Positions 17 through 61,958 are shown, counted from the first letter of the stretch. The stretch is DNA of 64,000 nt from a virus (IMGVR_UViG_3300033073_000410:32001-96000); one strand, 5' to 3'. The notes: generated from the letters alone by a model not told the origin. Numbers and translations are program-made.

Positions 17-610
17 TTATTGGAATATTTGGGGGTGTTGTTTGCCATAAATCTTTATGTACTTTCCCGCCATCATGTCAGCCATTGCTTCAATGGGTGA
101 TCCTGGATAACTATCACCAGGCTTAATCATATTCAATTGCCCTTGACGATGATGTGTCAACTCATGGAATATTGTTCGTAAGATATCTACGAGATTGCGA
201 TTGCCAACATACACAGTAATGTTACCGTCATCAGTATGCACACCGGTGCGATGATTTGCTTGAGCCTCGGCTGTATCTGTACTAAAGTCAAACACAGGAT
301 GTGGTTCTTGAATGTTTAGTTTCTGAATAGACCATTGAATAAAATGGTCGATAACTTGTTTCTCGTCTACAGATTCAACACCCTCGTCTAGTTCGTTATT
401 ACGTTGCTTAATCTTCTTAATCCAAGCATCGGGAGTGCGGCCAAACTTGCGAACAAACAAGTCGTGTAGTTTGTCACCCGTAATATCATGCTTAACACTG
501 ATTCTTGACATCAAATCGTCAATGGCATCATAGTCCACACGTTTGAGTGAGGGAAGCATCTTCGCTAGTTCGTCAGCGGCTGATTCTGATAAAAATTCTG
601 TAGCTCTCAT
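17..610 (-). CDS. Putative internal head protein with C-terminal zincin-like (HExxH) metallopeptidase module
   Basis: Start moved to MRATEFLSE (ATG 610, 5 nt after GATAAATA). Has RTIFHELTHHRQ...PIEAMAD and an internal LDE/GVE/VDE linker. Confidence 0.6.
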   Translation of the reverse strand: MRATEFLSESAADELAKMLPSLKRVDYDAIDDLMSRISVKHDITGDKLHDLFVRKFGRTPDAWIKKIKQRNNELDEGVESVDEKQVIDHFIQWSIQKLNIQEPHPVFDFSTDTAEAQANHRTGVHTDDGNITVYVGNRNLVDILRTIFHELTHHRQGQLNMIKPGDSYPGSPIEAMADMMAGKYIKIYGKQHPQIFQ

Positions 611-615
611 ATTAA

Positions 616-623
616 TATTTATC
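616..623 (-). promoter_or_regulatory. T4-type late promoter, representative of ~20 copies
   Basis: GATAAATA. TAAATA core also near 2562, 6907, 14771, 20057, 25676, 30266, 38309, 42751, 44494, 48144, 51368, 57875, 60177, 61985, 62933, 63586 (minus) and 48202, 53310 (plus). Confidence 0.8.
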
Positions 624-631
624 GCAAATAG

Positions 632-726
632 GAAAATGCTCACTTTTGAGATTACGGTAGCGAATCGCTCTCTCAGCCCAGCAGCCGGGCCACTCTATAA
701 CGCAAAGGTCCTAAGGTAGAGTGTTC
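632..726 (-). ncRNA. Candidate structured intergenic RNA (three helices)
   Basis: GC-rich spacer with CACUCUA/UAGAGUG, GCCCGG/CUGGGC, and UGAGA/UCUCA enclosing AGCG/CGCU. Confidence 0.4.
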
Positions 727-2055
727 TTACATGACAAATATCTTACCAACTGAACTTGATAATACATCGTCAAACATATACTGCATATCGTTAGCTAACA
801 TTGATGTAGCATCTTGTCTTTCGGACTCGTCACGATATTCAGGCTTGATATTCAAATACCTGCTAGGGTTGCCCCAGTTTTTACGGCCATAACCCAAGTT
901 AGCTGGTAATGGATTAAATGTTACTTGACCAGTACCTAGATACTGAGCGAAAATTTCATACAAGAATTCATATGGGCGCTTGATTTCACCACTACGACTA
1001 GAACGCTGTGTGCCGATAGCGTTGAACAATGCATTGTATTCTGGTGTCAAGTCACCTCTCATTGAGTTTGGAGTAACACCCATTCTACTTGGGCTTTGTT
1101 TACCATAGTAATCTTCTAGCATCCCGTTAACTGATGTGAAGAAATGCTTTTCAGCTTCGCCCCAAGTACTCCAACCACGATTAGTACGAACACCTGCTTG
1201 AATAGCATGACCAAATCTATGTGCCATGATCCATGGTGTCATCATTACTTTACTATCACCACTGTTACCTACGAATACTACAGTGATAGCATCTTCACTA
1301 CCTTCAATAATTGGTTGTGCTTGTTGGCCAAACATCTGTTGAAGTTGCTCACTGGAGACTGGGCCAGTTTCGCTATACTTCCCTGTGCCGGGGATGTTAC
1401 TAAAGAACAATCTAAAATCGTACGGAGTCTTTTCAAAGAACTTTTGCGTCTTTAATTGATTAGTGGGGTGAGGTACTAGACGTTTATCTACACCCTTAAA
1501 TGGACCTGGCTTATTAAAGTCACCCATTGGAGTGAACTGTTGTAAAGCCATCTCATCAGTAATTTCTTCACTAATCTTGTTCTCTGGTTTGTCATATGCT
1601 CTACGGTCAGTTAAGTGATATTCCATACCATTGTGTTCAGTGTATTTTTGATACAAGTCCCATGTAGGTAATAGACGTTTAATCATCTTAGCATATAATG
1701 CAATGCGACTATTTTCTTTTGCACTGAATGTGATTTCTTCTACTTTATCAAGTCCGTAATCTTGTAAAAATGCTCTAGTGATATCAACAGCAGTTGATAA
1801 TACTTCTGCTGAATTGCCGGTGCCAGTTGTACCAAACAAGTCTAAATCTTCAGGGTCGTCTTGGTTTCGTATTAAACGGAACTGCATCTCCCACTTAGTA
1901 GGATTACCTATACGAACATGTGAATAGGCATGCCATTGATATGTTCTATCACCTACTGTGAAATCAGCAGTTGCTTCTTCACTACCGCGGTGTCGCCACT
2001 TCCAGTTTGTCTTACCTGGAGCGAATACCTCAGTGATGAATTCACTTGCTCTCAT
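727..2055 (-). CDS. Two-module putative internal head protein
   Basis: Starts MRASEFITE; ISEEITDE linker. Module 1 resembles the C-terminal module of 49215..50588; module 2 has WIMAHRFGHA. Confidence 0.6.
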   Translation of the reverse strand: MRASEFITEVFAPGKTNWKWRHRGSEEATADFTVGDRTYQWHAYSHVRIGNPTKWEMQFRLIRNQDDPEDLDLFGTTGTGNSAEVLSTAVDITRAFLQDYGLDKVEEITFSAKENSRIALYAKMIKRLLPTWDLYQKYTEHNGMEYHLTDRRAYDKPENKISEEITDEMALQQFTPMGDFNKPGPFKGVDKRLVPHPTNQLKTQKFFEKTPYDFRLFFSNIPGTGKYSETGPVSSEQLQQMFGQQAQPIIEGSEDAITVVFVGNSGDSKVMMTPWIMAHRFGHAIQAGVRTNRGWSTWGEAEKHFFTSVNGMLEDYYGKQSPSRMGVTPNSMRGDLTPEYNALFNAIGTQRSSRSGEIKRPYEFLYEIFAQYLGTGQVTFNPLPANLGYGRKNWGNPSRYLNIKPEYRDESERQDATSMLANDMQYMFDDVLSSSVGKIFVM

Positions 2056-2495
2056 TACTCACGTTCTTTCTTTAAGATAGAACGAATGAACCACGCTTTC
2101 TTAGCATACAAGTCTTGTAGTTCAGCCAAGAAGTTTGCAATGCCTTGTTGCTTCTCATTAGTTGCTTCATCAAACATAGCAACAACTAACTGCAACATTT
2201 TATCAGTATCTTGTAATGTTTCGACAAACATTAACTCAGCACGAGGAATCTTTACTTGGTCTTCAATGATACTCAATTCAGCATAGCGTTGTAAGCTACC
2301 GGGAGTATAGTGACCTAAGATTCTAATGTATTCAGCAATGCGGTCAATTGTACCGTCTACATCACCGTATAGTGAATCATAGAATGCATGGTATTGCGGG
2401 AAGTTTGAACCCTCAATGTTCCAATGAAAGTTCTGTGATTTGATAGCAAAACTTTGTGTACTTGCTAGTAATACTTTTAGATTGTCTGATAACAT
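2055..2495 (-). CDS. dps: Dps / ferritin-like DNA protection protein
   Basis: KSQNFHWNIEG..F..YH, D.IAE.IR.LG and KKAWF motifs; 146 aa. Confidence 0.9.
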   Translation of the reverse strand: MLSDNLKVLLASTQSFAIKSQNFHWNIEGSNFPQYHAFYDSLYGDVDGTIDRIAEYIRILGHYTPGSLQRYAELSIIEDQVKIPRAELMFVETLQDTDKMLQLVVAMFDEATNEKQQGIANFLAELQDLYAKKAWFIRSILKKERE

Positions 2496-2564
2496 AATTA
2501 TTTCTGAGGTTGTGGGGGAGGACTACCCTTACGATTCCAATAGAATTCAAAGTAGTCCATGTAT

Positions 2565-4043
2565 TTAGTGTCTCAACAATAGTGTTGATAGAACGTTCTG
2601 GTCGTTAGCACTTACATCACCTTCACCAGGTGCAACAATAACATTGTACTTCATGCCACCAACTTTACCTTTACCCATGTACTCATCATATGATAATATA
2701 CTTGATGGGCTGATATTGTATGCATCGGCTAAACGTTGTTTCAATTGTTTCAATGCTTCTGGACTAGCAACTTGCCATTGACCATCTGGTCCTTTAGCCA
2801 AGTTACCCTTGCTATCTTTAGCCAATAAGTCATAGAATAGTTTTTCAGGAACAATGCGACTATTCTTAGTTGTTTCTAGATTAGGATCACTTGCCTTAAC
2901 TTGTTTCTCTTGGCTAGTGTTAGCACCTTCACTCCAGTTGATAATGAAGTTGTCTGGCTTCTTAGCTAATGCGGCACCAGCCATCTTAGTATAAGCATAG
3001 AACTTAGTGTCTGGATGTTGTGCTGCCATCTTCAACGCTAAGTCTAGGTATTCAGGACTAAAGAAGTCACCAGCGTCATGCCAACGAACTGTTACGTCCC
3101 AGCCACCTGGGAATTTCTTATCACCCTTTTTACCAGCAGCTTCTTCGTGTGCAATTTCGCTACTAAGTTGTTTAAAGAATCCATCCGGATCATTCAACAA
3201 GTATGTTAAGATGCGACCGTCACTAACCCAAGCATTCTTGAATTGAACTTTACCACCCTTCATAGCGAAGCAATCAACTTTACATGAACCAGCACCTGGA
3301 CATGTGTTTACTACAATTAGTTTGCCAGTAGATTCATCTACAGCGATACCAGTTAAAGCTGCAAAGCCAACGTTAAAGAATTGTTCAAACTCACCGTTTG
3401 AATGCTTCATCTTTTCGTTTTGCTTTAATAACTTCTTTGGACGTGTTTTCAATGCGTTGATAACATCTTCTTCACGATATCTTTTACCTTGCTCGTCATA
3501 GTAAGTGATTACACTTGAGCGATGCATGTATGGCAATTTAAACTTGTCAGTTTTAGTCTTACCACTAATGTACTTTTCTTCACCCGGTGTAACTTCACCA
3601 GTCTTCTTATTGACTTTATCTTTACTAACTTTGACTTTACCAGTCTTCTTGTCAATGTCAGGCGTACCTTGAATACGAGTCATATAGTCTTGGAACTCTT
3701 GTCCACCGAACTCACGTTGAGGTGCATCTAACTTAGTAGCTTCATCTACTGGCTTAGTAAAGCCTTGATACGCACCTTTAACTGCACCAGTAACACCGCC
3801 TATTACTTTCTTACCAACTTGTGACATGAAAGAAGGACGCTCTTTAGGCTGAGTTAAACTATCAATAGTCTTACGTGCGTTAGCTTGTGCATCACGTTGC
3901 ACATCAGCCATTGAGTATGCTTCATCTACTTCATCTTCATCGCCGGCTTGGCTGACGAATTGATCCATGCTCATTACTTTAACGCCTTGAACAGCTCCGG
4001 GTAGTTTTGGCGTTGCGCCTTCAAATAGTTCTTGAAATTTCAT
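2565..4043 (-). CDS. GP88-like (radical-SAM-related) protein with N-terminal head-targeting modules
   Basis: TCPGAGSCKVDCFAMKG, VRWHDAGDFFS, FYAYTK; starts MKFQELFE; VDE linkers. Confidence 0.6.
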   Translation of the reverse strand: MKFQELFEGATPKLPGAVQGVKVMSMDQFVSQAGDEDEVDEAYSMADVQRDAQANARKTIDSLTQPKERPSFMSQVGKKVIGGVTGAVKGAYQGFTKPVDEATKLDAPQREFGGQEFQDYMTRIQGTPDIDKKTGKVKVSKDKVNKKTGEVTPGEEKYISGKTKTDKFKLPYMHRSSVITYYDEQGKRYREEDVINALKTRPKKLLKQNEKMKHSNGEFEQFFNVGFAALTGIAVDESTGKLIVVNTCPGAGSCKVDCFAMKGGKVQFKNAWVSDGRILTYLLNDPDGFFKQLSSEIAHEEAAGKKGDKKFPGGWDVTVRWHDAGDFFSPEYLDLALKMAAQHPDTKFYAYTKMAGAALAKKPDNFIINWSEGANTSQEKQVKASDPNLETTKNSRIVPEKLFYDLLAKDSKGNLAKGPDGQWQVASPEALKQLKQRLADAYNISPSSILSYDEYMGKGKVGGMKYNVIVAPGEGDVSANDQNVLSTLLLRH

Positions 4044-4045
4044 AA

Positions 4046-6886
4046 TTATTTCTTTGGTACACAGTTAGGCACTGTCTTGCCGTTCTTTTTCTTCATGCCG
4101 TATTGTTCATAACCATCCCAGCAATCTTCTTCGATAGCAGCCTCAGGGCCATGATGCTTGAAATAAGCAACCCATGCTAATCTAAATGCTTTCTGACTGA
4201 ACGGGAATGGTGAACCACCACCGTAGTATAACTTCTGGAACGCATCTTTCATAGTGTCGCCAGGTCTTGCGTGACTTGCTGCCGCCCAGCCCACTTGCCA
4301 ACCCATTACATCTAAGCCAGCTTCGTAGCCACCACTTCGTTCAAACTCACGCATAGCTTCTGGATCTTTCTCAAACACAGACTTCTTTTCGTTTTGTTTG
4401 CGAATCTTAGCAATGTTTTTGGCACGATCCTTTACAATAATATCGTGTGCTTGATGTGTTGGTTCTGTCGCCCAGTCCCATGCTTTCTTAGCACCTTGTT
4501 TGATTGTATCACCAAAGCCTTCTTTAGCAACGATATCTTTATCTTTTGCTTTGTTTGAGATTTCTTTATCTTTAGCTTTTGCACCGATTTCTTTATCAGC
4601 ACCCTTCTTAAAGATTTGTAGGTCTTTGTACAGGTCACTGGCTAATTTATCTTCTGAAACTTCTGCTTCATCTACTTTTTTTGGAAGACTTTTATAGTCT
4701 GCTCCTTTATCAGCACTATGAAACTCTTTGCCAACTTTCTGACTAATGCCAACTTTCTTAGCAAACTCTGGATTGTGTGCTACTGCTGCCATTGTTCTGA
4801 ATTGTGCTTGGCTCTTTGATTTTTCATTGACTTGTTTAGCACGAGGATCTTGCCAGTGATAGATTAAACCATCACGACCTAAGGTTTCGCTCTTGCTCCC
4901 TCTATCTCCGGGAAAACTTGGCTTACGAGGTTCAGGGAACTTGCCTGTTGCTTGGGGTCCTGGCTTTAAGAAACTATTGGCTTCTTCTACTTGTTCGCCA
5001 CCTGCCATATGAGCACCATCGACAATCTTGCCGTTAGTAAACTTAAATGATTGTACACCATCTGGTGTTAACATCTTCTTCAATCCCATTGTAGTGATTG
5101 TTCCTGGGTCGGCTTGTCCTACACGCTTTTCTTCTACTGGCAATGCTGAACCACGAGGTAATACTTTCTTACCGTTTTGTAATTTACGTGATAGTAAATC
5201 TTGCAATACATAATCAGCGTTGTTAATAACAACTTGACGAGCTTCTTCTGGACTTGAAGCAACTACTGAGTACAGTCTTGGACCATAATCAGCATACTTG
5301 CCACGATAGTAGTTATTGAACACACGAACGTCCCATACACGCCAATCTTTAAGAGCGGCGAACGTAGACATTTCTTCACCTTCTTTAACGTCTTTATTCT
5401 TTTCTGCATCAGCAATATGTTGTTGCAACATAGCCCACAATCTATCACTTTCAGACTGTTTAGCTTCTTTATCTTTCCCAGACAACTCAGCTTTTGGCTT
5501 TTTACTCAATTCTTTTCTAGCAGTCTTTGTATTTGCTTTTTTAACTTCAGCTAAAGCATCTTCTGGTTGTCTTCTTGCTTGCGGTAATTGGTCATGTTCT
5601 TGTAAATAATCAAAGAACTCTTGAACTGACATACCATAATCACGTTCCACACCTGCTCTGAATGTAGCTTGTTCTTGAGGAGAAGCATTGTTGTACTTAT
5701 CCATTAGTTCAGTAACTGTCAAATCGGCGTCAATTATATTCTGATTTGCTTGTTGAGTAGCTACTACACCGAGCCATCTAATCTTATCAATAATCATACT
5801 AATCTCAGCAGTGATATTATTTCTAGTATCCATTGATGCTCTGCCAAACTTTTTCACCTGCTGTTGACTTAATGCTCTAGCGACTTCCATAAAGTCACTA
5901 CTGTTGACACCAGCTTTTTGTAATTCTTCTTTAGCGTATGCTAACCATTCTTTACCTTCATCAGTCAATCTCCAACTATTATCAATTTCAACTTGCTGAG
6001 GAGATGGGATTGAGGCAACAGTTGAACTGAAAGTTTGACCGCTTGGACGATTGACAATTTCTAAGATTGCTCTGATAGATGGTGTGATATCATTATTACC
6101 TTGAATCGCTGCACCAGTGTTAGGATTATATGATTGATTGTTTTCTGGGCCAAAATGCTTGACTTGCCACATACTCAATCGTCTTGCCAATGATATACGT
6201 TGTGCAGGATCAGCAGCTTCTAATTGTTTCTGAGCATATGCTAAGAAGCGTTGAAACTTATCACCTTCTTCTTCCCACTCATCAGCTTCTTCTAAACGTT
6301 GGTCGTTTGGTACACCACGTTGAAACAACTCTTGATGAATTGCTTGCCATGCTTCATTGTTCTTTTTACCTTCAGCACGTAATTCTTCTGTGTTTGGAGG
6401 TGCATCTCCGCCAAACAAACTAGCACCTTTATATTTGTTAAAGATGGCTTGAATTTCGTCACTACGTTTTCTAATATCACGTAGCATTTGCTTTAATTTG
6501 TCAGTTGGGATTTCTTTATATGGAGCTAATTTTGCTTGATATGCTGAAACATTAGCTTGTTGTTGTTCTTTTCCTTTAACTAAACCATCTTTGTAACCAC
6601 GTGAATATTCACCTGATTCAGGACCATAGATAGAACTAGCACGAGGATTAGCTTCACCCCTGATACCGTCATTGACGCCATCTTCATAAGCACCTTCTTT
6701 AACTGACACTGAGTTAGGAAATTTGTCACTAGTCTTGATGCCTTGTAACATAGAGCCTTTGCCTCTACGCTTAACTCTTCCTAGTGGTTGACTTACTGAC
6801 GCTACACTAGCACTTGTGCTAGTTCCCGCATCCGATTCTGTTACAACTTCTTGTTGTTTTGGTGCTAAAAGTTTTTCGATTTTCAT
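4046..6886 (-). CDS. Modular polyprotein-like putative internal head protein
   Basis: 946 aa of unrelated segments separated by VTE, VKE, LEE, LAE, VKE, VEE, VNE, VDE, VSE, IEE; ends in CWDGY...VPNCVPKK. Confidence 0.6.
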   Translation of the reverse strand: MKIEKLLAPKQQEVVTESDAGTSTSASVASVSQPLGRVKRRGKGSMLQGIKTSDKFPNSVSVKEGAYEDGVNDGIRGEANPRASSIYGPESGEYSRGYKDGLVKGKEQQQANVSAYQAKLAPYKEIPTDKLKQMLRDIRKRSDEIQAIFNKYKGASLFGGDAPPNTEELRAEGKKNNEAWQAIHQELFQRGVPNDQRLEEADEWEEEGDKFQRFLAYAQKQLEAADPAQRISLARRLSMWQVKHFGPENNQSYNPNTGAAIQGNNDITPSIRAILEIVNRPSGQTFSSTVASIPSPQQVEIDNSWRLTDEGKEWLAYAKEELQKAGVNSSDFMEVARALSQQQVKKFGRASMDTRNNITAEISMIIDKIRWLGVVATQQANQNIIDADLTVTELMDKYNNASPQEQATFRAGVERDYGMSVQEFFDYLQEHDQLPQARRQPEDALAEVKKANTKTARKELSKKPKAELSGKDKEAKQSESDRLWAMLQQHIADAEKNKDVKEGEEMSTFAALKDWRVWDVRVFNNYYRGKYADYGPRLYSVVASSPEEARQVVINNADYVLQDLLSRKLQNGKKVLPRGSALPVEEKRVGQADPGTITTMGLKKMLTPDGVQSFKFTNGKIVDGAHMAGGEQVEEANSFLKPGPQATGKFPEPRKPSFPGDRGSKSETLGRDGLIYHWQDPRAKQVNEKSKSQAQFRTMAAVAHNPEFAKKVGISQKVGKEFHSADKGADYKSLPKKVDEAEVSEDKLASDLYKDLQIFKKGADKEIGAKAKDKEISNKAKDKDIVAKEGFGDTIKQGAKKAWDWATEPTHQAHDIIVKDRAKNIAKIRKQNEKKSVFEKDPEAMREFERSGGYEAGLDVMGWQVGWAAASHARPGDTMKDAFQKLYYGGGSPFPFSQKAFRLAWVAYFKHHGPEAAIEEDCWDGYEQYGMKKKNGKTVPNCVPKK

Positions 6887-6909
6887 AAAAAGATCCGTTA
6901 ATCTAATAT

Positions 6910-15765: not shown

Positions 15766-17637
15766 TTATTCGTCCACGTAATCTTCTATGATACCACGTT
15801 CATCCTTGACCCCGTAGTGCCCACGACTAGCTTCTGTGTGTGGTTGATAGATGACAAATGCTTTAGGGCGATATCTTAGAAAATGCTCATACGCATACTT
15901 GTGTGCCATTCCTAAGTTATCTGACTGATATAATGGTCCACCGATAAATTCAAACTCATCATTAGGATCACATTGGTATACAACATACTCAGCATAGTGG
16001 TCATCGTCATCACCGTTACCAGGAGCGAATTCGTTTAGACCTTGCTCTTTCTTTGCTTTCTCTATAGCATCCCATTCGGCACCAGTCTTTTGTCCACGTT
16101 TTTTCTTCTGTGCAGGAGCAGTAGATGATGAGCGACCAGTGTGCATGTTTCTGTAATCGCCACTTGGTGTCTTAGTAAAGTCACCTTCTTTAACATCTAG
16201 TGCATCACCAACTTCCATTGGCTCTAGACCGTGTACAGGACAATCTGGATCTGGATCTCCTGGATGGCAAGAGCATTTGTATTTGCTGCCTTCTTCTAAG
16301 TCGTCCGATTCTAATTCATTAATTGTTTTAGGATTATCTGCTGGGTAGAAGTAATAACCCATTACACCCTTCAAACCACTGCGTGTCCAGATATAAACTT
16401 GACGACCTTCTTTAGTAACAATTAGTTTCAAACTAGAAGGAACATCACCGCGAATTGGCATTCTTGACGCCATATTAAGTTGAATGCCATTTAGATACAT
16501 GAAACTGCTATCACCGTCCCATTCAGCATCAGTTTGAATAGGGGCGTTCTTGCCGTGATAGTTTACTTGATTCAAGCGTTCGATATCTTGTGTACCTTTT
16601 TGAATACGTTTAGCGTCTTGTTTTGCTTTTTCGGCTGCATCAGCACGTGCTTGTGCGGCATTTGAATCTGCGGCTGCTTTGTACATAGCTTGTTGATGGC
16701 TTGGTGTAGGGAATGCACCAGCGATACCACTTGCTTTACCGGCTGCGCCAGCTAATCCTGCACCCGCGATACCCTTTAAGATACCTCTACGTGAGATATC
16801 CTCTTCAACACCCTTAGTTCTAGCTTCTTTTTCTAAGTCTAGTTTACGTTGACGAATAGCTTCCTGGTCAACACCCGGCTCACGCTCTAAATCTTGTAGT
16901 GCTTTTCTTTTAGCATCTAAATCAGCCTTATCTTTAAGTGCGGATTCAATTAAACTATATACCTTTTGTTTTCTATCATTAGACATTGTTGGTAATAATG
17001 GTTTAATACGCTCGATAAATTCTTTTAATTTCTTAGTCTTAACTGCGCCCAATAATCTAGCTTCTGCTTTACGCATTAAATCCATGACTTCTTTATCACT
17101 TAATGCTTTAGGCATATCTCTGCGCCACACTTGATACTTCTGTTCTTCTGTAGCATCAGGTTGCAATAGTATTTCACGCATAGGAGTAGCACGTGGGCCC
17201 TCTTCTTGTGCATACTTGTCTTTTGTCTCTTGTCTTGAAATAACCTTGAGTTTTTGTAATCCCATTGATTGATATACGGGTACGCCCTCTTTGTTTGGCT
17301 TTTCTAAGTACTGGAACGCATTCTTCTGGTCAGCACCCACAACAACTACAACACCAACATAACCCTCGTTAGCTAATTGTGTTAATGCTTCGTTTAAGTT
17401 ACCCTCTGCTGTAAAGATAGTAGCATACTGAGGGAATACACGTTGATAGATTTTAATCTTTTCTTCGGGGAATAATGGATCGTCTTTGCCAACTGTTTTG
17501 CTGACAAAGAAGTAAGGATCCGCATGCATCATCTTAGCTTGTGTGATAACTGCACTGGCTAGATACATATGCCCTGTGTGACCCATACCACGACCCCATC
17601 CTACTACTGCGATTTTGCTTTGACCTGTGCGTTTCAT
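15766..17637 (-). CDS. HxGH (cytidylyltransferase-like) nucleotidyltransferase followed by a polyprotein tail
   Basis: WGRGMGHTGH, DPL, VVGAD, ATPMR. ATG at 17637 overlaps the upstream TGA. C-terminal half is short modules split by LIE/VEE/INE/LEE/VKE/LNE/IIE. Confidence 0.7.
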   Translation of the reverse strand: MKRTGQSKIAVVGWGRGMGHTGHMYLASAVITQAKMMHADPYFFVSKTVGKDDPLFPEEKIKIYQRVFPQYATIFTAEGNLNEALTQLANEGYVGVVVVVGADQKNAFQYLEKPNKEGVPVYQSMGLQKLKVISRQETKDKYAQEEGPRATPMREILLQPDATEEQKYQVWRRDMPKALSDKEVMDLMRKAEARLLGAVKTKKLKEFIERIKPLLPTMSNDRKQKVYSLIESALKDKADLDAKRKALQDLEREPGVDQEAIRQRKLDLEKEARTKGVEEDISRRGILKGIAGAGLAGAAGKASGIAGAFPTPSHQQAMYKAAADSNAAQARADAAEKAKQDAKRIQKGTQDIERLNQVNYHGKNAPIQTDAEWDGDSSFMYLNGIQLNMASRMPIRGDVPSSLKLIVTKEGRQVYIWTRSGLKGVMGYYFYPADNPKTINELESDDLEEGSKYKCSCHPGDPDPDCPVHGLEPMEVGDALDVKEGDFTKTPSGDYRNMHTGRSSSTAPAQKKKRGQKTGAEWDAIEKAKKEQGLNEFAPGNGDDDDHYAEYVVYQCDPNDEFEFIGGPLYQSDNLGMAHKYAYEHFLRYRPKAFVIYQPHTEASRGHYGVKDERGIIEDYVDE

Positions 17638-18770
17638 AATTTTCTTGGCTTCCAATTCAATTGGTCGATAAGTTTTAAGAACTGTCCGGGTAAATCATTC
17701 TGAAAGTTAATCTCAGGGTGTGCTTGTACATAGCCCTCTGGATTAGTTTGCATGATTCCACCGTGAAGTCCTAGACTTAACGACTTGATAATCTTCATCT
17801 TCTCGTTTGTTAATGCTTCTACAGCACCCAGTGTAGCTTTCAAGCCCTCTTTGTCACTAAGCATCATTTGTGCTTTAGCTGGGCTTAAGTTTTGTTGTGC
17901 ATATGCTGGGAAATCTTTTAATAGATTCTTAACACGTAAATGTTTATTTAGATATGTATATAATTCACCACCGGGACTAGATAATCCCTTCTTAGGTGCT
18001 AGATAATTGTCAATTAACTGACTATTAGTTGAAATAAACTGTGCTAATTTATCTAGGCCACTAGTATCGACACCGGGCATTTCTTCTACATATGTTGTAC
18101 CCTGAACAATAACTCCGGGAACACTTAATTTCTCTGCGTTAGGATAACGTTGTTCGTCACCACTACCCAATGTAGCATAATAACCTGTAGCGGCTACCAT
18201 TAGTTTAGCACCTTTAATCTGTTTACCTAGATTACTGTCAGCAGGAACGTGAAACGTAGTGATATTAGGCTTAAAATCGTATGTCTTTGTACGTGGGTTT
18301 AATGTAGGAGGTGATTCACATCCAGGGAAGAACAATAATCCACCCTCGATGAAGCCTTTCTTAGGTGAAATCTTCTCAAAGTACGGCCATAGACTAGCTA
18401 ATGTCTGTGCAAACACTTTACGTCCACCAGCATCGCCGGATCCTGTGCCTAATACGAACTTAACAATATCTTCGGGACTGCTAGGAAGAGTGGGTGCGCC
18501 AGTATTAGTCTGCATCTTACCACTCTTTAAATATTGCCATGCATTCTTAGGAATCATTCTAAAGACTCCTTTATCATCACGGCCCCAATAGATAACGGGC
18601 ATACCATCCCATTTTAATTCAATCGAATCATACTTCTCAGTCATATACTTCATGCGTTCTACTGCGTGAAGGCCACCTTGACTACCATTACTGATAACCA
18701 AGTCTTCAATATGCTGATACTTACGACCAACAGTTCCGGCAGCTTCAAATAAAATATCGTTTAATTTCAT
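17634..18770 (-). CDS. RNA-ligase-like protein (KxDG; DUF6267-like)
   Basis: HIEDL, ELKWDGMP (ligase motif I), EGGLLF, PEGYV, LKLID; start MKLNDILFE. Confidence 0.6.
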   Translation of the reverse strand: MKLNDILFEAAGTVGRKYQHIEDLVISNGSQGGLHAVERMKYMTEKYDSIELKWDGMPVIYWGRDDKGVFRMIPKNAWQYLKSGKMQTNTGAPTLPSSPEDIVKFVLGTGSGDAGGRKVFAQTLASLWPYFEKISPKKGFIEGGLLFFPGCESPPTLNPRTKTYDFKPNITTFHVPADSNLGKQIKGAKLMVAATGYYATLGSGDEQRYPNAEKLSVPGVIVQGTTYVEEMPGVDTSGLDKLAQFISTNSQLIDNYLAPKKGLSSPGGELYTYLNKHLRVKNLLKDFPAYAQQNLSPAKAQMMLSDKEGLKATLGAVEALTNEKMKIIKSLSLGLHGGIMQTNPEGYVQAHPEINFQNDLPGQFLKLIDQLNWKPRKL

Positions 18771-19525
18771 TTTAGCATGTCCATTGTACGACGGAACCAT
18801 TCAGTTACGTTTGGAGTAGCAGCCTGCCAGCTTGCGCCAGCACGTGCTTTACTCATAATTTCTTCTTGTCTCTCTGGTGGGACTTTAGCAATGATAGATT
18901 CAACAGAACCCAAGTCTTTACCAGTAGCTCCCTTACCTAATAGATATTGAGCGATTGTATTCCAGTCGCTAGATAATAATTGTGCTTTCTTTCCTGCACT
19001 GTCTCTAGCATATAAACCCTCGTCTGGACTCCATAGCATATTCTGACTACTTGCTAGTGCGTTCATAACTAGTTGCTTGTTCACGCCCTTGTATGGACTA
19101 CCCTGAGGGATTTCATGTCTGTGATATTGTGCTACATTCTTAGCGTTCTTAACTACTTTGATATCTACTTGATAGAAGTTACCAGCTAAAGGGATTCTAG
19201 CATGAACTGTAACGCCCGCTAGTTTAGTCTGAATATTCTTTTCATTTAAATATGCAGCCAATGCTCTACGTGTAGTTGATGAATCGCTAGTGTTGAATTG
19301 TTTCATTAGTATTTCTAAGTCAACCATTGCGTCTAAGTCGTTTGCTCTTACAACTGACCCATCTTTGTTGTATCGTGGCTTCCAGCATGAGCCGATAACT
19401 TCTACGGAAACTCCCAAAGGTTTCACATATTTGAACGTAGCTTCTGCTAATGGCTTTCCAACTTCACTGGGGTCAAAGTTAGTTACTACATCGTCCCAAA
19501 TGTTTCCACCTTCCATTAAGTTCAT
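18767..19525 (-). CDS. Pol-beta-like nucleotidyltransferase
   Basis: VIGS...NDLDAMVD and YQVDI; starts MNLMEGGN. Confidence 0.6.
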   Translation of the reverse strand: MNLMEGGNIWDDVVTNFDPSEVGKPLAEATFKYVKPLGVSVEVIGSCWKPRYNKDGSVVRANDLDAMVDLEILMKQFNTSDSSTTRRALAAYLNEKNIQTKLAGVTVHARIPLAGNFYQVDIKVVKNAKNVAQYHRHEIPQGSPYKGVNKQLVMNALASSQNMLWSPDEGLYARDSAGKKAQLLSSDWNTIAQYLLGKGATGKDLGSVESIIAKVPPERQEEIMSKARAGASWQAATPNVTEWFRRTMDMLK

Positions 19526-24505: not shown

Positions 24506-25045
24506 TTATAATCCCGCCTTTGAAATAAAGTCTTTGAGTAGACTATCTTGTTCTTTGAAAATCTTGTGTGGCTCTAGTCCTGCACGTTCACGCATTTCAT
24601 TCAAGTCTGACTCTTTTTCCATTCTATATTGATGTGGACTTAATGTAATCATACTTTTAATACGTCCGGCGTCTAAAGGATAATTAGTCCCATCAATTTT
24701 CATTTCCCAGTCTTCAACTTTAAGACCAGTTAATGTTTCTAAATCTTCTACAAGCTCAATGATTCTATCTGGAACCATTGTTCTACGGTCTAGTTCAACG
24801 AACACTACATAGCGTCCTGATACTAACTCACCGTCACTAGTCTTAGCGTCTAAGACCCAGTCATATCCTCGCTCAAACCAGTCAACTAAATCTTCACTAG
24901 CCTGATTACCCCTAACAACAAATGACACAGTAACAATTTCATCATCACTTCCCATCTTTGCTTCATATTCATCAATTGAAATTCTAGGGACGATTTGTCC
25001 CTTCAAATCCATATGATCCATACCCTCTAATAGAATTTTGTTCAT
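24506..25045 (-). CDS. Hypothetical protein
   Basis: 179 aa; starts MNKILLE. Confidence 0.6.
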   Translation of the reverse strand: MNKILLEGMDHMDLKGQIVPRISIDEYEAKMGSDDEIVTVSFVVRGNQASEDLVDWFERGYDWVLDAKTSDGELVSGRYVVFVELDRRTMVPDRIIELVEDLETLTGLKVEDWEMKIDGTNYPLDAGRIKSMITLSPHQYRMEKESDLNEMRERAGLEPHKIFKEQDSLLKDFISKAGL

Positions 25046-38385: not shown

Positions 38386-40590
38386 TTAGATACCGCTTAA
38401 CTTTTTCCAATCACTGATTTCAGCACGTACTGGGTTGCCTACTGCCTGACTGTGTTTTTCTCTATTCAAATCATTACCCATGCTCAATAGAGCTTTTAAC
38501 TGAGCAATTTCATCGTGCGGTTCATTTGCGAATGATTCTTCGACTGTTTCTTCTTCGCATTCGCATTCAGATTGACCGCAATCACTGCATGATTCATCAT
38601 GGTCTGCGTGTCCACCTTCTTCATCTTTTCCTAAACGACCAGCAACTACGTCACCTTGAGTAACTTTGTCGTATGGCTTAGCATTGTTAGCTAGATTACC
38701 GTCGTTAGCTTCGTCAACTTCTTCCTCATCTTCTTGGGAATCTTGTTCTTCGCCGCCTTCTTCTGCACCTTCTTCGTCAGAAGATGTGTCGCTTGAGTTC
38801 TCATCTTCATAGTCTTGACCGCCTTCTTCGCCACCTTGTGCTGGCTCTAAAGTTTGTGACTGTTCTTCGCCACCTTGTTCTGGTGAACCTTGTTCGCCAC
38901 CTTCGATACCGGCCATACGCTTCATCAATGACAACATATCATCACCGTCACCAACTACGTCAGGTGCGGCTTGAGGTTCTGTGCCTGTACCGTCGAAATC
39001 TTCTTCACCTTGACTAGCAACACCATAACCGATTTGAGGCTTTTCTTCACCACCGAATACGCCGATACCTGCATTACGCAATACGCCTAAAAGTTGTCCT
39101 GCGTCAGCATCAGTTGCACTGATAGTAACTGAATCAGGTGAACCTTGTTGACCTGTGCTTGAAGATACAGTGATACCTTCATTTAATAAACTGTCTAGCT
39201 GTTTTGCCCAGCTTTCTACTTGAATGTCTTTCATATTTGTACCTTCTGAAAATGGATTTGCTTCTGGCTTTGGTTTACGTAGACCAGAAATAAAATTAAT
39301 TGCTCTATCTGTTGTTGCTTGAATAGGATCAACTGACCACGGAGTAGGAGCTTGTTTTGGATCTACTGCAACATATTTGCTTGGTGTTGCGTCCATACCA
39401 TGTTGTGTATGGTCTTCAATTGACCCTTCATCCAATGATGGGACCTTTTGATAATGTGCATATGCACTCGCTACATCACTGATAAAATCCTCATCATAAG
39501 AAACTTTGTAACGAGCAGCCTTAGGTGTTAGACCACATGCAATTAGTTCGTGATAGATGGCTCCGTAGAACTCATCATTGCTACTTAATGCTTCCATGCC
39601 TGGTTTCTCACGTGCTAGGATTTTAGCAATCTTTTCATCTAGATATTCACTAGCTTCATGGTCACGGCTTTCAGCAACTTTCTTCTTAGCTTCTTTGTCT
39701 TTTTCAGCTTTAGTCCAAGATTCTGTCTCATTATCGTCATCATCAACATCAGTGAAATCTGGCTTCTTACCTTCAGCCATTTGTTGTTCATCGTTAGGAT
39801 TCAATGTCATTTCACCCTTACCAATAGATTGTTTAATCTGTGCAGCCAATTGTGGATTGTTAACTGTACCCAATGTCTGATTGCCCTTTTGGATAACTTG
39901 TGTGTTAGTTTGACTTGCTGGTTTAACTTGAATAGGATCCTGATTAGTCATATCTTCTTCAATAGCATTGTATTCAATACCTAACTCAGCTGCCTTTGCT
40001 TTCAAGTCAGCATCAACATCACGCATCACACCTAAGTTAGCTCTTAAACCAGAACCAAAACCCATCTTGTCATGTTGGTGATTCATAATAGTACCCTTCA
40101 TTCTCTGGGCGTACTTTTGTGCAACTGCAAATTGTTCAGGCGTTTGAACTGATTTGATAACTTTTGCTAGTTTAGATAGGTTAGCCGCAACACTTGTATG
40201 GTCTACCCCACCGAACAAACCCTCCATTACAGCTTCAGCTTCTTTTGTATCTGCTACTGATTCCATGTATTCTTTTAGTGAGTGCTTGACTGAACGCTTA
40301 CCTACTTCACCTTTTGGCTTCTTGCCACCACCGAATACGTTACTCAATGCTGATGAATCATATGTTTTTACTTCACCGGAATCATCTGCACCCTTCTTAG
40401 GACGACCACGTCCCTTTTTAGGAGCATCTTTCTTTCCCTCAGCATCTTTATTAACTTTGCCGATTTTATGTCCATATTGGTCACGAACGTCTTCCTTACC
40501 GTGACTAGTACCATAAGTACCTTTGTGTACTCGACTGCCTTCTGACTCAGAAAGTTCAGTCATTGATTGTAATAGGCTTCTGAAATCCAT
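38386..40590 (-). CDS. Acidic modular putative internal head/core polyprotein
   Basis: LSE, LKE, VME, IEE, MAE, VAE, LDE, LNE, VDE, VEE-delimited segments; AT-hook-like KKGRGRPKK. Confidence 0.6.
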   Translation of the reverse strand: MDFRSLLQSMTELSESEGSRVHKGTYGTSHGKEDVRDQYGHKIGKVNKDAEGKKDAPKKGRGRPKKGADDSGEVKTYDSSALSNVFGGGKKPKGEVGKRSVKHSLKEYMESVADTKEAEAVMEGLFGGVDHTSVAANLSKLAKVIKSVQTPEQFAVAQKYAQRMKGTIMNHQHDKMGFGSGLRANLGVMRDVDADLKAKAAELGIEYNAIEEDMTNQDPIQVKPASQTNTQVIQKGNQTLGTVNNPQLAAQIKQSIGKGEMTLNPNDEQQMAEGKKPDFTDVDDDDNETESWTKAEKDKEAKKKVAESRDHEASEYLDEKIAKILAREKPGMEALSSNDEFYGAIYHELIACGLTPKAARYKVSYDEDFISDVASAYAHYQKVPSLDEGSIEDHTQHGMDATPSKYVAVDPKQAPTPWSVDPIQATTDRAINFISGLRKPKPEANPFSEGTNMKDIQVESWAKQLDSLLNEGITVSSSTGQQGSPDSVTISATDADAGQLLGVLRNAGIGVFGGEEKPQIGYGVASQGEEDFDGTGTEPQAAPDVVGDGDDMLSLMKRMAGIEGGEQGSPEQGGEEQSQTLEPAQGGEEGGQDYEDENSSDTSSDEEGAEEGGEEQDSQEDEEEVDEANDGNLANNAKPYDKVTQGDVVAGRLGKDEEGGHADHDESCSDCGQSECECEEETVEESFANEPHDEIAQLKALLSMGNDLNREKHSQAVGNPVRAEISDWKKLSGI

Positions 40591-40808
40591 TATCGTGATC
40601 CTCTTTTATCTAATTTATCTTCAATTCTTCCTAGTTGTTTTGACAATTCAACTAACTTATCATTCATTGCTTCTTGTCTAACACTATTAATAGTTAACTT
40701 GTTGTCAACTTCTTTAATCTTACTATCCATTGTGAGATAGCCGCCGCCACCAATGCCACATGCACTGATAACTATCCAGCTAAGTTGTTTAGCTGTGAAG
40801 TCAATCAT
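40590..40808 (-). CDS. Small membrane-anchored coiled-coil protein
   Basis: N-terminal hydrophobic stretch then heptads; 72 aa. Confidence 0.55.
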   Translation of the reverse strand: MIDFTAKQLSWIVISACGIGGGGYLTMDSKIKEVDNKLTINSVRQEAMNDKLVELSKQLGRIEDKLDKRGSR

Positions 40809-41407
40809 TTGCTGAATCCTTTACCACCAGTTGCTGGTAACTCTGGACGCTTGACAGAACTCATTGGGCTCTTAGTTTGAATGCCTTCTTTGCTCTTGTT
40901 TGGTGCAGTTGGAGTTTCTTTACCTGCGTAAGGGATATCAATACTTGGTTTCTTAGGAACAACTTTGTCTAAGTATTGATTTGCATAATCTTTGCTTGCT
41001 TCTTTGCCATCATCCGGAAGTTCTGGTTGTAGCAACAATGCTTCATCTCTATCATTTGCGTATCTATCGTTGTCAGCATTCAAACTGTCATCGTATTCAG
41101 TAGTAGTTACACGAACCATACTAACTTGTTTACCTAGCATTTGTGCAACTTGCTGAATCATTGGTTCAGTTGCCGGATACTTAAATTCTGCTTTGATGAT
41201 TGTAACTGATTGATTTTCTACATCAGGGAATCCAACTGGATTCTTTTGAATAGGTGTAGTTTTTGGTTCTTCGATTTTGACTGGGTCAAACTTGCTCAAG
41301 TTAGTCTTGAACAACGACATGAACTTACTGTCCACATCACCGGCGATTTTGATAGTGTACTTGTATGTATGCACACTTTCCATGAGATAATGACGAAGGC
41401 TCTTCAT
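40805..41407 (-). CDS. Hypothetical late protein with CTS-like start
   Basis: MKSLRHYLME; late promoter upstream. Confidence 0.6.
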   Translation of the reverse strand: MKSLRHYLMESVHTYKYTIKIAGDVDSKFMSLFKTNLSKFDPVKIEEPKTTPIQKNPVGFPDVENQSVTIIKAEFKYPATEPMIQQVAQMLGKQVSMVRVTTTEYDDSLNADNDRYANDRDEALLLQPELPDDGKEASKDYANQYLDKVVPKKPSIDIPYAGKETPTAPNKSKEGIQTKSPMSSVKRPELPATGGKGFSK

Positions 41408-49214: not shown

Positions 49215-50588
49215 TTACTTTTTTCTGGTTAATTCGTAAACAACTTGGTCACCTTGGTCTTCATAATACTCGTCATAACCCCAAGCATTAGCGTAACGCT
49301 GTACCATTCTGTTATATAGTTTTGCTCTGCTAGGATTATATTCTCCGGGCTCAACTTCTTGCTTTGCTGAGAATATGATTCTCCATGGATGTTCTTTCTG
49401 AATGAACTGTTGAATCGCAGTCAATACAGTAGCGAATATTCTTTGTGCGTCACCTTCGCCGGTTACTTCTTGGCTATGATTCCTATGGAACTCAACTTGC
49501 CATTCTTCGTCACCTTCGTCATTGAACATAATATTCAAATAAGTACCGTCACCTAATGTTGCAAGTGCGTCCCAATCCCCAAAGTCACTTTTTTCCCACT
49601 TGATACGATAAGGGTCATCAAATGCTTCTTTGATTTCTTCTACTGGAACATATGCAGGTATCTGTTTAAGTCCTTGTCGCTGTGCTTGATAAGCTCTATG
49701 GAACCCATCAATGATAACGCCATTACTATCTACAATGATAGGATCTTTGAAGTTGATCGGATGGTCAGTATCAATGTCAATCACTCTGCCGTACGGATCA
49801 TCAAAACTATCTGTATCTAATTCCATTGGATTAACCGTAGTTAATTTCCATTTATGGCTTTTGACATATTGTTCTGTATCAGGGTTTAAGTTTCTACCCT
49901 GTGTCAAGCCTTCCCAAACAGTTTCTTCTTCACCGCGATGTTTGTTCCAGAATCCAGCACCAGCATCTGTTTGGTCGTAGCTTCTATTGACTTTATACCC
50001 ACGATAAGTTGCGAAATCATACATAAGTTGAGCAATTCCCTGCCCCCTATATCTTTCATCTACTTCTACATATTTCGCTTCTAGGTCGTCATAGAATCTA
50101 CTGAATGTAACGTGACCCAATACTTTATTACCCTGACTATCCAATGCTTTTATCTCAACTTCATCATCAAGTTCGGATATTTTCATCGGCACACCTTGAA
50201 ATTTTTCAATGCGGCTTTCGTCATCTTCCCAAACAGTTTCTTCACCGCGATTCTTTTGCCAGTGATGTTCACCTGATTGTTTACCTTGGTCTTTGATTTT
50301 TGTTAAGTCAGGGCTTCTATGAATTTCATATCCATGACTTGTTACAAAGTCATACATTTTTCTAGCAACACCTTGACCTCTAGCTTCAGGTTCAACCCAC
50401 AAACTTTGCGCTTCGATGAAGTCACCATCCATATCATTAAAGTGAGCACGACCTATCACATTGCCCCAGTCATCAAGTGCTTTGACCACAATGGCGCCAA
50501 GTTTAGAAATTTCTAATTTCATGTCAACACCCTCGAAATCTTCGACGGTGCCCATTTTGTACTCAATGATAAACTCTTTTGCTCTCAT
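49215..50588 (-). CDS. Four-module protein: GNAT, GNAT, ParB-like, unknown module
   Basis: Start MRAKEFIIE. VEPEARGQGVA and VDERYRGQGIA acetyl-CoA motifs; PIIVD...IIDGFHR; TVWE and IKE joints. Confidence 0.75.
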   Translation of the reverse strand: MRAKEFIIEYKMGTVEDFEGVDMKLEISKLGAIVVKALDDWGNVIGRAHFNDMDGDFIEAQSLWVEPEARGQGVARKMYDFVTSHGYEIHRSPDLTKIKDQGKQSGEHHWQKNRGEETVWEDDESRIEKFQGVPMKISELDDEVEIKALDSQGNKVLGHVTFSRFYDDLEAKYVEVDERYRGQGIAQLMYDFATYRGYKVNRSYDQTDAGAGFWNKHRGEEETVWEGLTQGRNLNPDTEQYVKSHKWKLTTVNPMELDTDSFDDPYGRVIDIDTDHPINFKDPIIVDSNGVIIDGFHRAYQAQRQGLKQIPAYVPVEEIKEAFDDPYRIKWEKSDFGDWDALATLGDGTYLNIMFNDEGDEEWQVEFHRNHSQEVTGEGDAQRIFATVLTAIQQFIQKEHPWRIIFSAKQEVEPGEYNPSRAKLYNRMVQRYANAWGYDEYYEDQGDQVVYELTRKK

Positions 50589-53284: not shown

Positions 53285-53337
53285 GTCCTAGAAAGGTAAT
53301 ACTTTAGTCATAAATACACTATAATTGGATAAACGCA

Positions 53338-54966: not shown

Positions 54967-54974
54967 GGTAAACA

Positions 54975-56342: not shown

Positions 56343-56360
56343 CTAATGATAAATTAGTGT

Positions 56361-56780: not shown

Positions 56781-56792
56781 AGCGGCTTTTTT
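56765..56792. terminator. Bidirectional intrinsic terminator
   Basis: AAAAAAAGCCGC-ATAAA-GCGGCTTTTTT. Confidence 0.88.
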
Positions 56793-56808
56793 GTTGTGCT
56801 TAAAAATA

Positions 56809-57789: not shown

Positions 57790-57803
57790 TTTATTTCTCC
57801 TTG

Positions 57804-57870
57804 AAAAATGTGGGTTCAAGCCCACTACGCGGTTGACTTCCGCATAAAACTTACCCTATGTAAGTCGTAC
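57804..57870 (-). promoter_or_regulatory. Structured 5' leader with three hairpins
   Basis: ACUUAC/GUAAGU, UAUGCGG/CCGCGUA and GUGGG/CCCAC between GATAAATA (57875-57882) and the RBS. Confidence 0.55.
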
Positions 57871-57884
57871 TATATATTTATCAA

Positions 57885-60152: not shown

Positions 60153-60189
60153 AGTATAATCTTTATGTGATTATACTATTTATCATCTA

Positions 60190-60876: not shown

Positions 60877-60882
60877 ATGGAA

Positions 60883-60912
60883 ATTGTACTACGAATTTCT
60901 TCATAGTACAAT
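60883..60912 (-). promoter_or_regulatory. Sigma70-type promoter whose -35 and -10 form the arms of a 13-bp hairpin
   Basis: TTGTAC-17 nt-TACAAT; AUUGUACUAUGAA-GAAA-UUCGUAGUACAAU. Confidence 0.65.
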
Positions 60913-60920
60913 CTAATTGG

Positions 60921-61219
60921 TTAACCGACTTGTTTGCTTGCCATTTGCTGTCGAATCTTTGCGTTTTCGTCAGCATCGCCTTCTGGCGGTTCGTCTGGTT
61001 CTTGTGTTTTAAATGTTACTTCATGTGCGTTAACGTTAGCGATAATGTTTTTCAATGGGTCTTTATGCACAATGTCAAACAAATCTTCTTTACCTAAGTT
61101 GACGCCATTTTGACGTAATAGTTTTAAGAATTCTTCTGTTGGAAGTTTCTCAGTAGAGCCTTGGACAAGTTGGTTAAGTTGAGCGGCTACACTGCGTCCG
61201 CAAACTCAAAGAGTCTCAT
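60921..61219 (-). pseudogene. Frameshifted gene (~99 aa if repaired)
   Basis: MRLFEFADAV* stops at TAG 61187-61189; the -1 frame continues SVAAQLNQLV...QMASKQVG* to 60921. Confidence 0.7.
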
Positions 61220-61220
61220 A

Positions 61221-61958
61221 TTAACGAGTAGCTCTACCTACTGATCCCGGGATTTCTTCTGGTTCTTCTAAGTCAGCTTCTGGTTCAGTAGCTAAGTCAG
61301 GACTCATCTCAGCGCCGGCTGCTGGGTCTGCACCTAAGTCGCCGCCCATGTCATCACCCATCTCACCGCCCATATCTGCACCCATGTCAGCACCTGCTGC
61401 CGCGCCAGTAGCATCAAAGCCACCTGCTTGACCAGTGATAACACCTAATGCACCGCTTAGACCTGTCTTAGAACCTGTCAAGGCTGCTTGCAATGAAGTC
61501 AATGCTTGAGTAACTTGGTCGTTGAATTGTTGACCTTCGTTTGTACCAACTTCACTGTTGACACCGTCGACAACTGCTGGTAATTCTTTAACTAGCATGT
61601 CAGATACTTGCTCAACCATCTTCTGGATTGAGTCAACCATCTCTTGTGCTGCCAAGATAACTTGTGACTTCTCAACTTGCTCGTTTTCTACAACGATACG
61701 TTGATTGTACATTGGCATTGCTTTCAAATCACCATAGTGATGTGTCAATGCTTGTTCCATGAATACTAGTTTCAAGTATGCTGGATTGTGTTGTGATTCG
61801 ACACTCTTGCTTTCGCGGATTAGACCCTTAACTTTATTAAGCATTTTCTTTGTTTCGAAAAGGCCCAATTGGTCTACATTGAACTTCGTATTGAAGTGTT
61901 CTTCCAACGCTCTCTTAGCGACTGAAGTTGGATTGTTGTTAAATTCTGATAGTTTCAT
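61221..61958 (-). CDS. Hypothetical late protein, possibly prohead core-like
   Basis: MKLSEF start; helical, with an acidic G/M/D-rich tail. Confidence 0.6.
   Translation of the reverse strand: MKLSEFNNNPTSVAKRALEEHFNTKFNVDQLGLFETKKMLNKVKGLIRESKSVESQHNPAYLKLVFMEQALTHHYGDLKAMPMYNQRIVVENEQVEKSQVILAAQEMVDSIQKMVEQVSDMLVKELPAVVDGVNSEVGTNEGQQFNDQVTQALTSLQAALTGSKTGLSGALGVITGQAGGFDATGAAAGADMGADMGGEMGDDMGGDLGADPAAGAEMSPDLATEPEADLEEPEEIPGSVGRATR

Follow-up and report, generated by a model that had tools for sequence, protein, structure and literature searches.

Several otherwise unrelated proteins encoded in a 64,000-nucleotide (nt) stretch of viral DNA (IMGVR_UViG_3300033073_000410:32001-96000, here called the window) begin with a leader whose core is nine residues long, M-R-[A/I]-x-E-[F/I]-[I/L]-x-E. 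This leader and its looser relatives ending in hydrophobic-x-Glu are probably T4-type capsid-targeting propeptides, a reading to which we assign a probability of roughly 0.65. By analogy with bacteriophage T4 we infer scaffold binding, cleavage, presence in the virion and injection of the tagged proteins: late in infection the leader would bind to the scaffolding core of the assembling prohead and the attached protein would be enclosed; a prohead protease of the gp21 type would cut after the final Glu of the leader; and the mature cargo would remain in the head with the DNA and enter the next host cell on injection. The predicted cargo includes a tandem GNAT acetyltransferase, a single GNAT-like protein, a GH19 muramidase, a ligase-like DUF6267 protein, a GP88-family protein and several others.

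The window covers bases 32001-96000 of a 115,484-bp linear IMG/VR contig (~33% complete according to CheckV), and almost all of its genes lie on the minus strand. Its source is an uncultured jumbo myovirus from a distant branch of the T4 superfamily. The tail sheath protein (1184 amino acids, aa) shows a best identity of ~47% to cultured phages (Pseudomonas PA5oct-like, Sinorhizobium Phosso, Agrobacterium Atu_ph07), and a megablast search with 12.7 kb of the window against cultured phages gave no match. The closest complete genome found was G005, a 367-kb IMG/VR record with a sheath identity of 61%, whose region from 200 to 336 kb is syntenic with the contig of the window. Statistics given below for the own contig refer to gene calls for the whole contig (152 genes), and those for G005 to 421 genes.

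Distribution and conservation of the leader

An initial annotation had listed 13 N-terminal peptides as copies of a single capsid-targeting-like tag. All 13 are present as starts of minus-strand open reading frames (ORFs; Table 1), but they do not represent one motif. The strict leader is found in the window on three proteins (starts 610, 2055 and 50588), and the N-termini of homologues identify the peptides at 18770 and 4043 as variants of it. Family-specific leaders with a hydrophobic-x-Glu end are present at 25045, 41407 and 40590, and only the M-[K/R]-x-x-E-F half at 14766, 61958 and 61219. A single tag with ~13 members is thus an overstatement: only three strict and two variant members lie in the window, three of the listed peptides have no terminal Glu, one belongs to a broken gene, and support is missing for one or two. 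An end of the [LI]xE type was found at 610, 2055, 50588, 4043, 18770, 25045, 41407 and 40590, where it is kept in homologues; it is absent at 14766, 61958, 61219 and 6886. The starts at 610, 18770 and 50588 require an ATG internal to the longest ORF. This choice is backed in all three cases by homologues opening with the same peptide, and at 18770 and 50588 also by a stop/start overlap with the preceding gene.

A regular-expression search of the whole contig revealed three further, consecutive tagged genes just outside the window, directly downstream of 17-610 in the coding direction. Together with 17-610 and 727-2055 they form a run of five tagged genes which resembles the internal-protein loci of T4; no terminator or sigma-70 excess splitting this run was seen in the first 7.2 kb. 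The total for the contig is six strict or near-strict nine-residue leaders plus two variants. In an all-against-all BLAST comparison the carriers were unrelated past residue 9 except for two shared internal modules, namely a DUF6934-like module common to 727-2055 and the C-terminus of 49215-50588, and a GNAT-like module shared with the GNAT-like gene just upstream of the window. The same comparison ruled out that the tagged proteins are paralogues.

The leader class is concentrated at gene starts. The pattern M[RKN]..E[FL], anchored at the initiator Met, opens nine of 152 genes on the own contig (0.37 expected from internal Met sites) and 13 of 421 in G005 (0.77 expected), an enrichment of ~20-fold in both; in T4 there is one match (0.21 expected). 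The strict form MRA.EF[ILVFM].E was found at 4/152 gene starts and at 0/824 internal Met sites. The enrichment of [LI]xE at any place in the first 12 residues is just ~2-fold, and MNLME and MKIEKLL, taken alone, are thus indistinguishable from chance. More than 120 contigs were among the IMG/VR matches listed for a DNA pattern encoding MRAxEFIxE. The 130 listed sites are essentially all ORF starts (median of ~7 open codons upstream, upstream in-frame ATG rare), and once the leader was removed, the 125 listed carriers fell into 18 unrelated clusters. Five complete genomes (345-524 kb) contained 20 strict matches, two to six in each, and none to a reversed-pattern control.

Codons for Ala3, Glu5, Phe6, Ile7 and Glu9 vary synonymously, roughly matching genome usage, and the DNA upstream of the leaders is not conserved, so that selection acts on the peptide. 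Conservation at the RNA level was ruled out by this synonymous variation.

Table 1. Leaders, candidate leaders and associated features. Coordinates are those of the window unless preceded by L002; an arrow marks the putative end of a leader or a hydrophobic-x-Glu site.
Coordinates	Strand	N-terminus or motif	Protein or context	Basis
616..622	-	ATAAATA	T4-late-promoter-like; 5 nt before ATG at 610	
17..610	-	MRATEFLSE↓S	strict leader; 197 aa	ATAAATA 5 nt upstream; homologues
727..2055	-	MRASEFITE↓V	strict leader; 442 aa; DUF6934/phrog_16075-like module directly after leader	homologues
49215..50588	-	MRAKEFIIE↓Y	strict leader; 457 aa; two GNAT acetyltransferase domains, DUF6934-like C-terminal module	
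2565..4043	-	MKFQELFE↓GATPKLPGA	variant 8-residue leader; GP88-family protein, 492 aa	
17634..18770	-	MKLNDILFE↓AAG	variant leader; DUF6267 protein, 378 aa, invariant KxDG	homologue series
24506..25045	-	MNKILLE↓G	7-residue family leader; labelled virion structural protein in PHROGs (phrog_13138)	
40805..41407	-	MKSLRHYLME↓S	10-residue leader of T4-tag geometry (aromatic 7, L8, x9, E10)	
38386..40590	-	MDFRSLLQSMTELSE↓	15-residue leader, then variable linker; 734 aa	
13837..14766	-	MNLNEL	M-x-x-x-E-[FL] half only; nucleotidyltransferase-like; directly behind ATAAATA	
61221..61958	-	MKLSEFN	targeting-like half without cleavage motif; highly conserved protein, acidic tail	
60921..61219	-	MRLFEFAD	gene frameshifted after ~codon 9	comparison with G005
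18767..19525	-	MNLME↓GGNIW	ambiguous	homologues
4046..6886	-	MKIEKLL	unsupported as leader	no initial hydrophobic-x-Glu; no G005 orthologue
15766..17637	-	...GVEE↓DISRRGILKGIAGAGLAGAAG	internal (residues 270-310; segment at residue 282); twin-arginine-like, after hydrophobic-x-Glu site	
L002 19202-19882	-	MRINEIITE	flanking gene; GH19	regular expression over contig gene calls
L002 18486-19205	-	MRAREFSEA	flanking gene	regular expression over contig gene calls
L002 18073-18489	-	MRANEFINE	flanking gene; GNAT-like	regular expression over contig gene calls

Comparison with T4 and genomic context

T4 internal proteins are basic, and gp21 also removes N-terminal propeptides from Alt, an injected ADP-ribosyltransferase, and from the vertex protein gp24. 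The capsid targeting sequence (CTS) of the internal proteins was reportedly a subject of Mullaney and Black in 1996. It has been reviewed for IPII/IPIII and IPI (PMC9026906, PMC3012670). In this tag, residues 4 and 7 are the main determinants of targeting, and residues 8 and 10 those of processing; with Asp at position 10 the peptide still targets but is no longer processed, and CTS-like sequences on other basic proteins have been described in T4-related phages (PMC9026906). The T4 tag quoted in the initial annotation, MKTYQEFIAE, could be re-derived from ipII and ipIII of NC_000866; further controls from this genome are ipI, MKTFKEFTSTTTPVSTITE (MKTFKEF...ITE), alt, MELITELFDE, and gp24, MAKINELLRE. 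The T4 residues F7, I8 and E10 correspond in the alignment to F6, I/L7 and E9 of the leader. A loose regular expression which finds the leaders described here gave five matches in T4, and four of these are known processed head proteins (ipII, ipIII, gp24, alt).

In both systems a short N-terminal peptide, with an E-F-I-x-E core ending in a gp21 cleavage motif, precedes otherwise unrelated proteins. The genes are probably late and lie in variable loci, the cargo in relatives is mostly basic, and the head module of complete relatives is T4-type in its protease and Gp23 capsid protein and, in G005, in a scaffold-like gene. The leader differs from the T4 CTS in having nine instead of ten residues, in starting with MRA instead of MKTYQ and in lacking a counterpart of Tyr4. 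Its cargo is larger and modular (GNAT, GH19, ligase-like, nucleotidyltransferase-like), and its bearers belong to a distant jumbo lineage. The short family-specific L-x-E leaders MKLNDILFE, MNKILLE and MKSLRHYLME are reminiscent of those of Alt and gp24. As an enzyme delivered with the DNA, Alt is also a precedent for the tagged GNAT proteins, although it is an ADP-ribosyltransferase and these are acetyltransferase-like; no homology to Alt or gp24 was found. A further likeness is to the polyvalent proteins of phages and conjugative elements, which are reportedly treated by Iyer et al. in 2017. Polyvalent proteins are effectors built from several shuffled domains and presumably enter the cell together with the DNA. 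GH19, GNAT, DUF6934 and nucleotidyltransferase-like modules similarly recombine behind the same leader here, but the proteins tend to be smaller (one to three modules) and are defined by the N-terminal leader and not by domain content. Giant phages such as SPN3US and its phiKZ-like relatives also pack many proteins with their DNA and use a T4-related prohead protease that cuts after Glu. Their ejection and inner-body proteins, however, carry propeptides of 80-130 residues without a common short tag (PMC5694885, PMC10052503), and they represent another lineage without sequence similarity to the present one.

Genes for a Peptidase_S77 (gp21-type) protease and for a Gp23-type capsid protein are present in each of the five complete genomes with the leader. 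The head genes of G005 are arranged in the order portal-like gene, 75-aa gene, acidic 303-aa gene, protease, 366-aa gene and capsid. The 75-aa gene opens with MKLFEMFDQ directly behind an ATAAATA element, the protease gene spans 62183-62818, and the 366-aa, scaffold-like gene (62830-63930) contains 20 [LI]xE sites, i.e. 5.5 per 100 aa, compared to ~1.5 in its neighbours and 5.9 in T4 gp22. The median isoelectric point of tagged proteins is 8.8 in G005 (6.1 for the others) and 8.2 for the tagged IMG/VR proteins.

Sequence motifs suggest that the tagged genes are expressed late. Of 26 ATAAATA sites genome-wide, 18 precede a gene start by no more than 40 nt, at distances of 4-7 nt or 17-26 nt, and the element thus appears to behave like the -10 element of T4 late promoters. 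ATAAATA-headed units in G005 comprise 13 of 16 tagged but 195 of 405 untagged genes (p=0.008). All replication-type and chaperone genes of the window, for example the clamp-loader-like 26899-27825, the ClpB-like 20771-23050 and the DnaJ-like 23062-23868, lack the leader; it is likewise missing from an array of small genes beyond 68 kb.

Gene 49215-50588 is located between a deoxynucleoside monophosphate (dNMP) kinase-like gene and a head-tail adaptor gene. The corresponding slot is empty in PA5oct (L005 18476-19874) and occupied by a different tagged gene in G005 (303595-305891). Given that its contents differ among phages, tagged genes behave as insertions in a conserved late module, and the slot looks like a hot spot for the insertion of cargo genes.

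The tagged set includes predicted enzymes, as had been proposed: the tandem GNAT protein, the GH19 muramidase and the ligase-like protein. In the family of the latter (17634-18770; Pfam family DUF6267), K53, D55 and G56 are invariant in 63 sequences. An AlphaFold2 model of this protein had a mean predicted local distance difference test score (pLDDT) of 87, with values <50 for residues 1-17 and ~90 for the rest; in this one modelled protein, then, the leader is predicted to be an appendage outside the folded cargo. All best fold matches were RNA or DNA ligases, yet they were weak (Foldseek E of at least 0.02, VIA-align Z of ~5), and no PDB sequence match was obtained. PDB sequence searches with three cargo proteins returned nothing useful. 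Protein 13837-14766 gave a weak Pfam match to a nucleotidyltransferase domain, below the cut-off.

The design and inferred mechanism appear to be those of the T4 tag, while the lineage and the consensus do not seem to have been described before; a full-text literature search did not find the leader strings. Loading of foreign cargo by means of a tag is already established for T4 and is not new. If the leader is T4-like, the set of proteins delivered with the DNA could be read from sequence alone for a large uncultured clade of freshwater-type jumbo phages. Its acetyltransferases, muramidase and ligase-like enzyme would then be candidates for host takeover in the first minute or for anti-defence, and the T4 head-loading code would have been kept, nearly residue for residue at functional positions, across a very deep split of the T4 superfamily.

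Points against capsid targeting and alternative explanations

A number of observations weigh against a capsid-targeting function. The enrichment of tagged genes in late units of G005 has no significant counterpart on the own contig, where six of ten tagged and 49 of 142 other genes are in ATAAATA units (p=0.10). Tagged proteins of the own contig are no more basic than others. The contig contains no prohead protease gene, which fits its incompleteness (~33%). The fifth T4 match of the loose expression is gene 61.1 (MKTFKEFIKE), which is not known to encode a head protein, so the motif alone is no proof of packaging; this gene (L150 18966-19130, minus strand), close to the ipI/ipII CTS in sequence, is annotated as hypothetical and lies in an early region. 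Two families of small proteins account for 73 and 25 of the 125 listed IMG/VR carriers, and much of that count therefore reflects inheritance and not independent acquisition. Finally, a tblastn search of 50,697 phage records with protein 727-2055 gave no match and no cultured carrier was found. The whole genome of PA5oct did not match MRxxEF.x.E, and the starts of PA5oct virion proteins, inspected over a 42-kb stretch, were only loosely similar. The arrangement of GH19 proteins and the usage of codon 2, described next, also count on this side.

The GH19 family is the clearest sign that the leader may be a portable address placed before shuffled modules. Nearly all of the best 120 homologues open with MR[A/I]xE[F/I/V][I/V]xE, whatever module follows: (i) a twin-arginine-like signal (39/120); (ii) a Lys/Arg-rich plus Gly/Tyr-rich linker; (iii) GNAT or DUF6934 modules; or (iv) a hydrophobic W..W.AG segment (W..W.AG.G). 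In the 39 homologues the leader stands two residues before SRRGFLG, which is followed by a Gly/Ala-rich stretch and AxA, and the GH19 protein of the own contig, which reads MRINEIITEDMSRRGFLGALGAGAMAASGAAQA↓K, likewise has a twin-arginine motif, an h-region and AQA↓K after the leader. The leader of these proteins directly precedes what looks like a good twin-arginine signal, and their N-terminus, if left uncut, could be an ordinary export signal. More generally, the leader might be an address for another destination, either as n-region of a twin-arginine translocation (Tat) signal or signal anchor or for another part of the virion, and not be removed by the prohead protease. This view, also favoured by a second, untagged GH19-like gene in the tail/baseplate module (33288-33917, minus strand; 22 bits at a Pfam cut-off of 25.5), is in our opinion unlikely. 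Most leader proteins (GNAT, DUF6267, DUF6934, GP88 and small basic families) have no hydrophobic segment, and the leader is acidic, unlike the typical positively charged n-region. In addition, protein 15766-17637 carries this RR segment internally, after VEE, and there it could not work as an N-terminal signal unless exposed by a cut. As for the second GH19-like protein, it has neither leader nor hydrophobic segment and could be the actual endolysin of the phage or else a lysin of the tail.

Protein 15766-17637, whose N-terminus matches a PHROG annotated as cytidylyltransferase, has D-I-S-R-R-G-I-L-K-G after G-V-E-E, the same junction as that after the leader in the flanking GH19 gene. This segment is internal and would have to be exposed by a cut before it could work as a signal. 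An improbable extension of the capsid-targeting model would be a two-step address, in which the cut by the prohead protease unmasks a Tat signal (D-M/I-S-R-R-G-F/I-L-G) on the packaged GH19 muramidase, a cut after VEE exposes the same signal on the C-terminal half of 15766-17637, and the Tat system of the new host exports both to the periplasm once they have been injected.

The leader could alternatively be an expression module, i.e. a 5' coding sequence favourable for late, nearly leaderless mRNAs that was spread by recombination and encodes a peptide without function. In several tagged genes ATAAATA indeed precedes the ATG by just 4-7 nt and a Shine-Dalgarno sequence is missing, and tagged genes lie in variable, insertion-prone loci. 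Moreover, the codon for Arg2 was AGA in 20 of 20 matches (the pattern allowed CGN) compared to 34% genome-wide, a possible sign of some constraint on the nucleotide sequence of codon 2. We nevertheless regard this explanation as very unlikely, given that Ala3, Glu5, Phe6, Ile7 and Glu9 are fixed as amino acids with free synonymous positions and that upstream DNA is not conserved. A Shine-Dalgarno-like motif is present in about half of the IMG/VR examples, and the leader is missing from most late genes, among them those for sheath and tube, which are expressed at very high levels.

For the weak items (MNLME, MKIEKLL and perhaps MNLNEL, MKLSEF and MRLFEF) chance or a family-specific structural element at the N-terminus, unrelated to the leader, would be a rather unlikely explanation. 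About 10% of proteins would have an [LI]xE among their first 12 residues by chance, MKIEKLL has neither a hydrophobic-x-Glu end nor an orthologue, and MNLME is mostly found behind a longer open frame in homologues. The MKLTEFN and MRLFEF starts do not vary within the respective family and may simply belong to its fold. As a class, however, M[RKN]xxE[FL] starts, including MNLNEL and MKLSEF, are not due to chance in view of their enrichment in two genomes. If the leader is a capsid-targeting propeptide, one may speculate that the Glu-less forms MKLSEFN, MNLNEL and MRLFEFAD target their proteins without being cut, an idea derived from the effect of Asp10 in T4.

Individual leader families and neighbouring genes

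Among the strict members, 17-610 has an orthologue in G005 opening with MRAHELEES and an IMG/VR homologue (L038) opening with MRAKEFIFE. The G005 homologue of 727-2055 starts with MRATEFIAE, and four IMG/VR homologues (L011, L049, L102, L116) are all leader-initiated. The variants show how the leader diverges within families. The G005 orthologue of 2565-4043 reads MNIIELME↓GATPKLPGA, in which the leader has changed and ELxE↓G is kept. The N-termini of 120 DUF6267 homologues include all intermediates from MKIRTLLE↓AAG via MKFSDILTE↓AAA to MRANEFLTE↓AAA, with Glu9 invariant and Ala10 nearly so.

The family-specific leaders are likewise conserved at their ends. Homologues of 24506-25045 read M-x-K-I-L-x-E↓G and vary at x alone. 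M-K-S-L-R-H-Y-L-x-E-S is kept in the 80 homologues of 40805-41407, position 9 being free; PA5oct gp282, a homologue of this protein annotated as detected in virions by electrospray ionization tandem mass spectrometry (ESI-MS/MS), which indirectly supports packaging, yet lacks LxE. In the family of 38386-40590 (80 homologues), MDF[RK]SLLxS..x[LI][SN]E is kept and is followed by divergence with insertions and deletions.

Of the items with half a leader, 13837-14766 has a G005 orthologue which opens with MNLLEF, likewise without Glu; a related-locus search gave no relatives of this gene. Gene 61221-61958 has 490 IMG/VR relatives, and 79 of the 79 inspected open with MKL[TNS]EF/L. At ~75 loci the gene downstream of the MKLTEFN gene opens with MR[LI][FY]EF. 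In the window, the start at 61219 opens an ORF of only 10 codons and the gene continues in another frame; it is intact, encoding 117 aa, in G005, where the first eight residues are identical, and in most relatives. An assembly artefact, decay into a pseudogene or programmed frameshifting could each explain the interruption. In relatives of 18767-19525, L[LM]E↓GGNIW is conserved, mostly behind a longer open upstream stretch. Gene 4046-6886 has a late promoter 20 nt upstream.

Three further minus-strand genes of the window deserve mention. Gene 6910-9588 encodes a late protein of 892 aa with a C-terminal subtilase (Peptidase_S8) domain and adjoins genes for proteins of 946 and 1407 aa, both without G005 orthologues. 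In the late structural region, 20771-23050 encodes a ClpB/ClpA-type double AAA+ chaperone with a Clp_N domain and is followed by 23062-23868, whose product resembles, by eye, a DnaJ J-domain at its N-terminus. Beyond the end of the window (68000-74500 in its frame, L003), each gene in a run of small genes lies behind a near-identical TTGAGGTGG, a ribosome-site-like motif which overlaps the end of the preceding gene.

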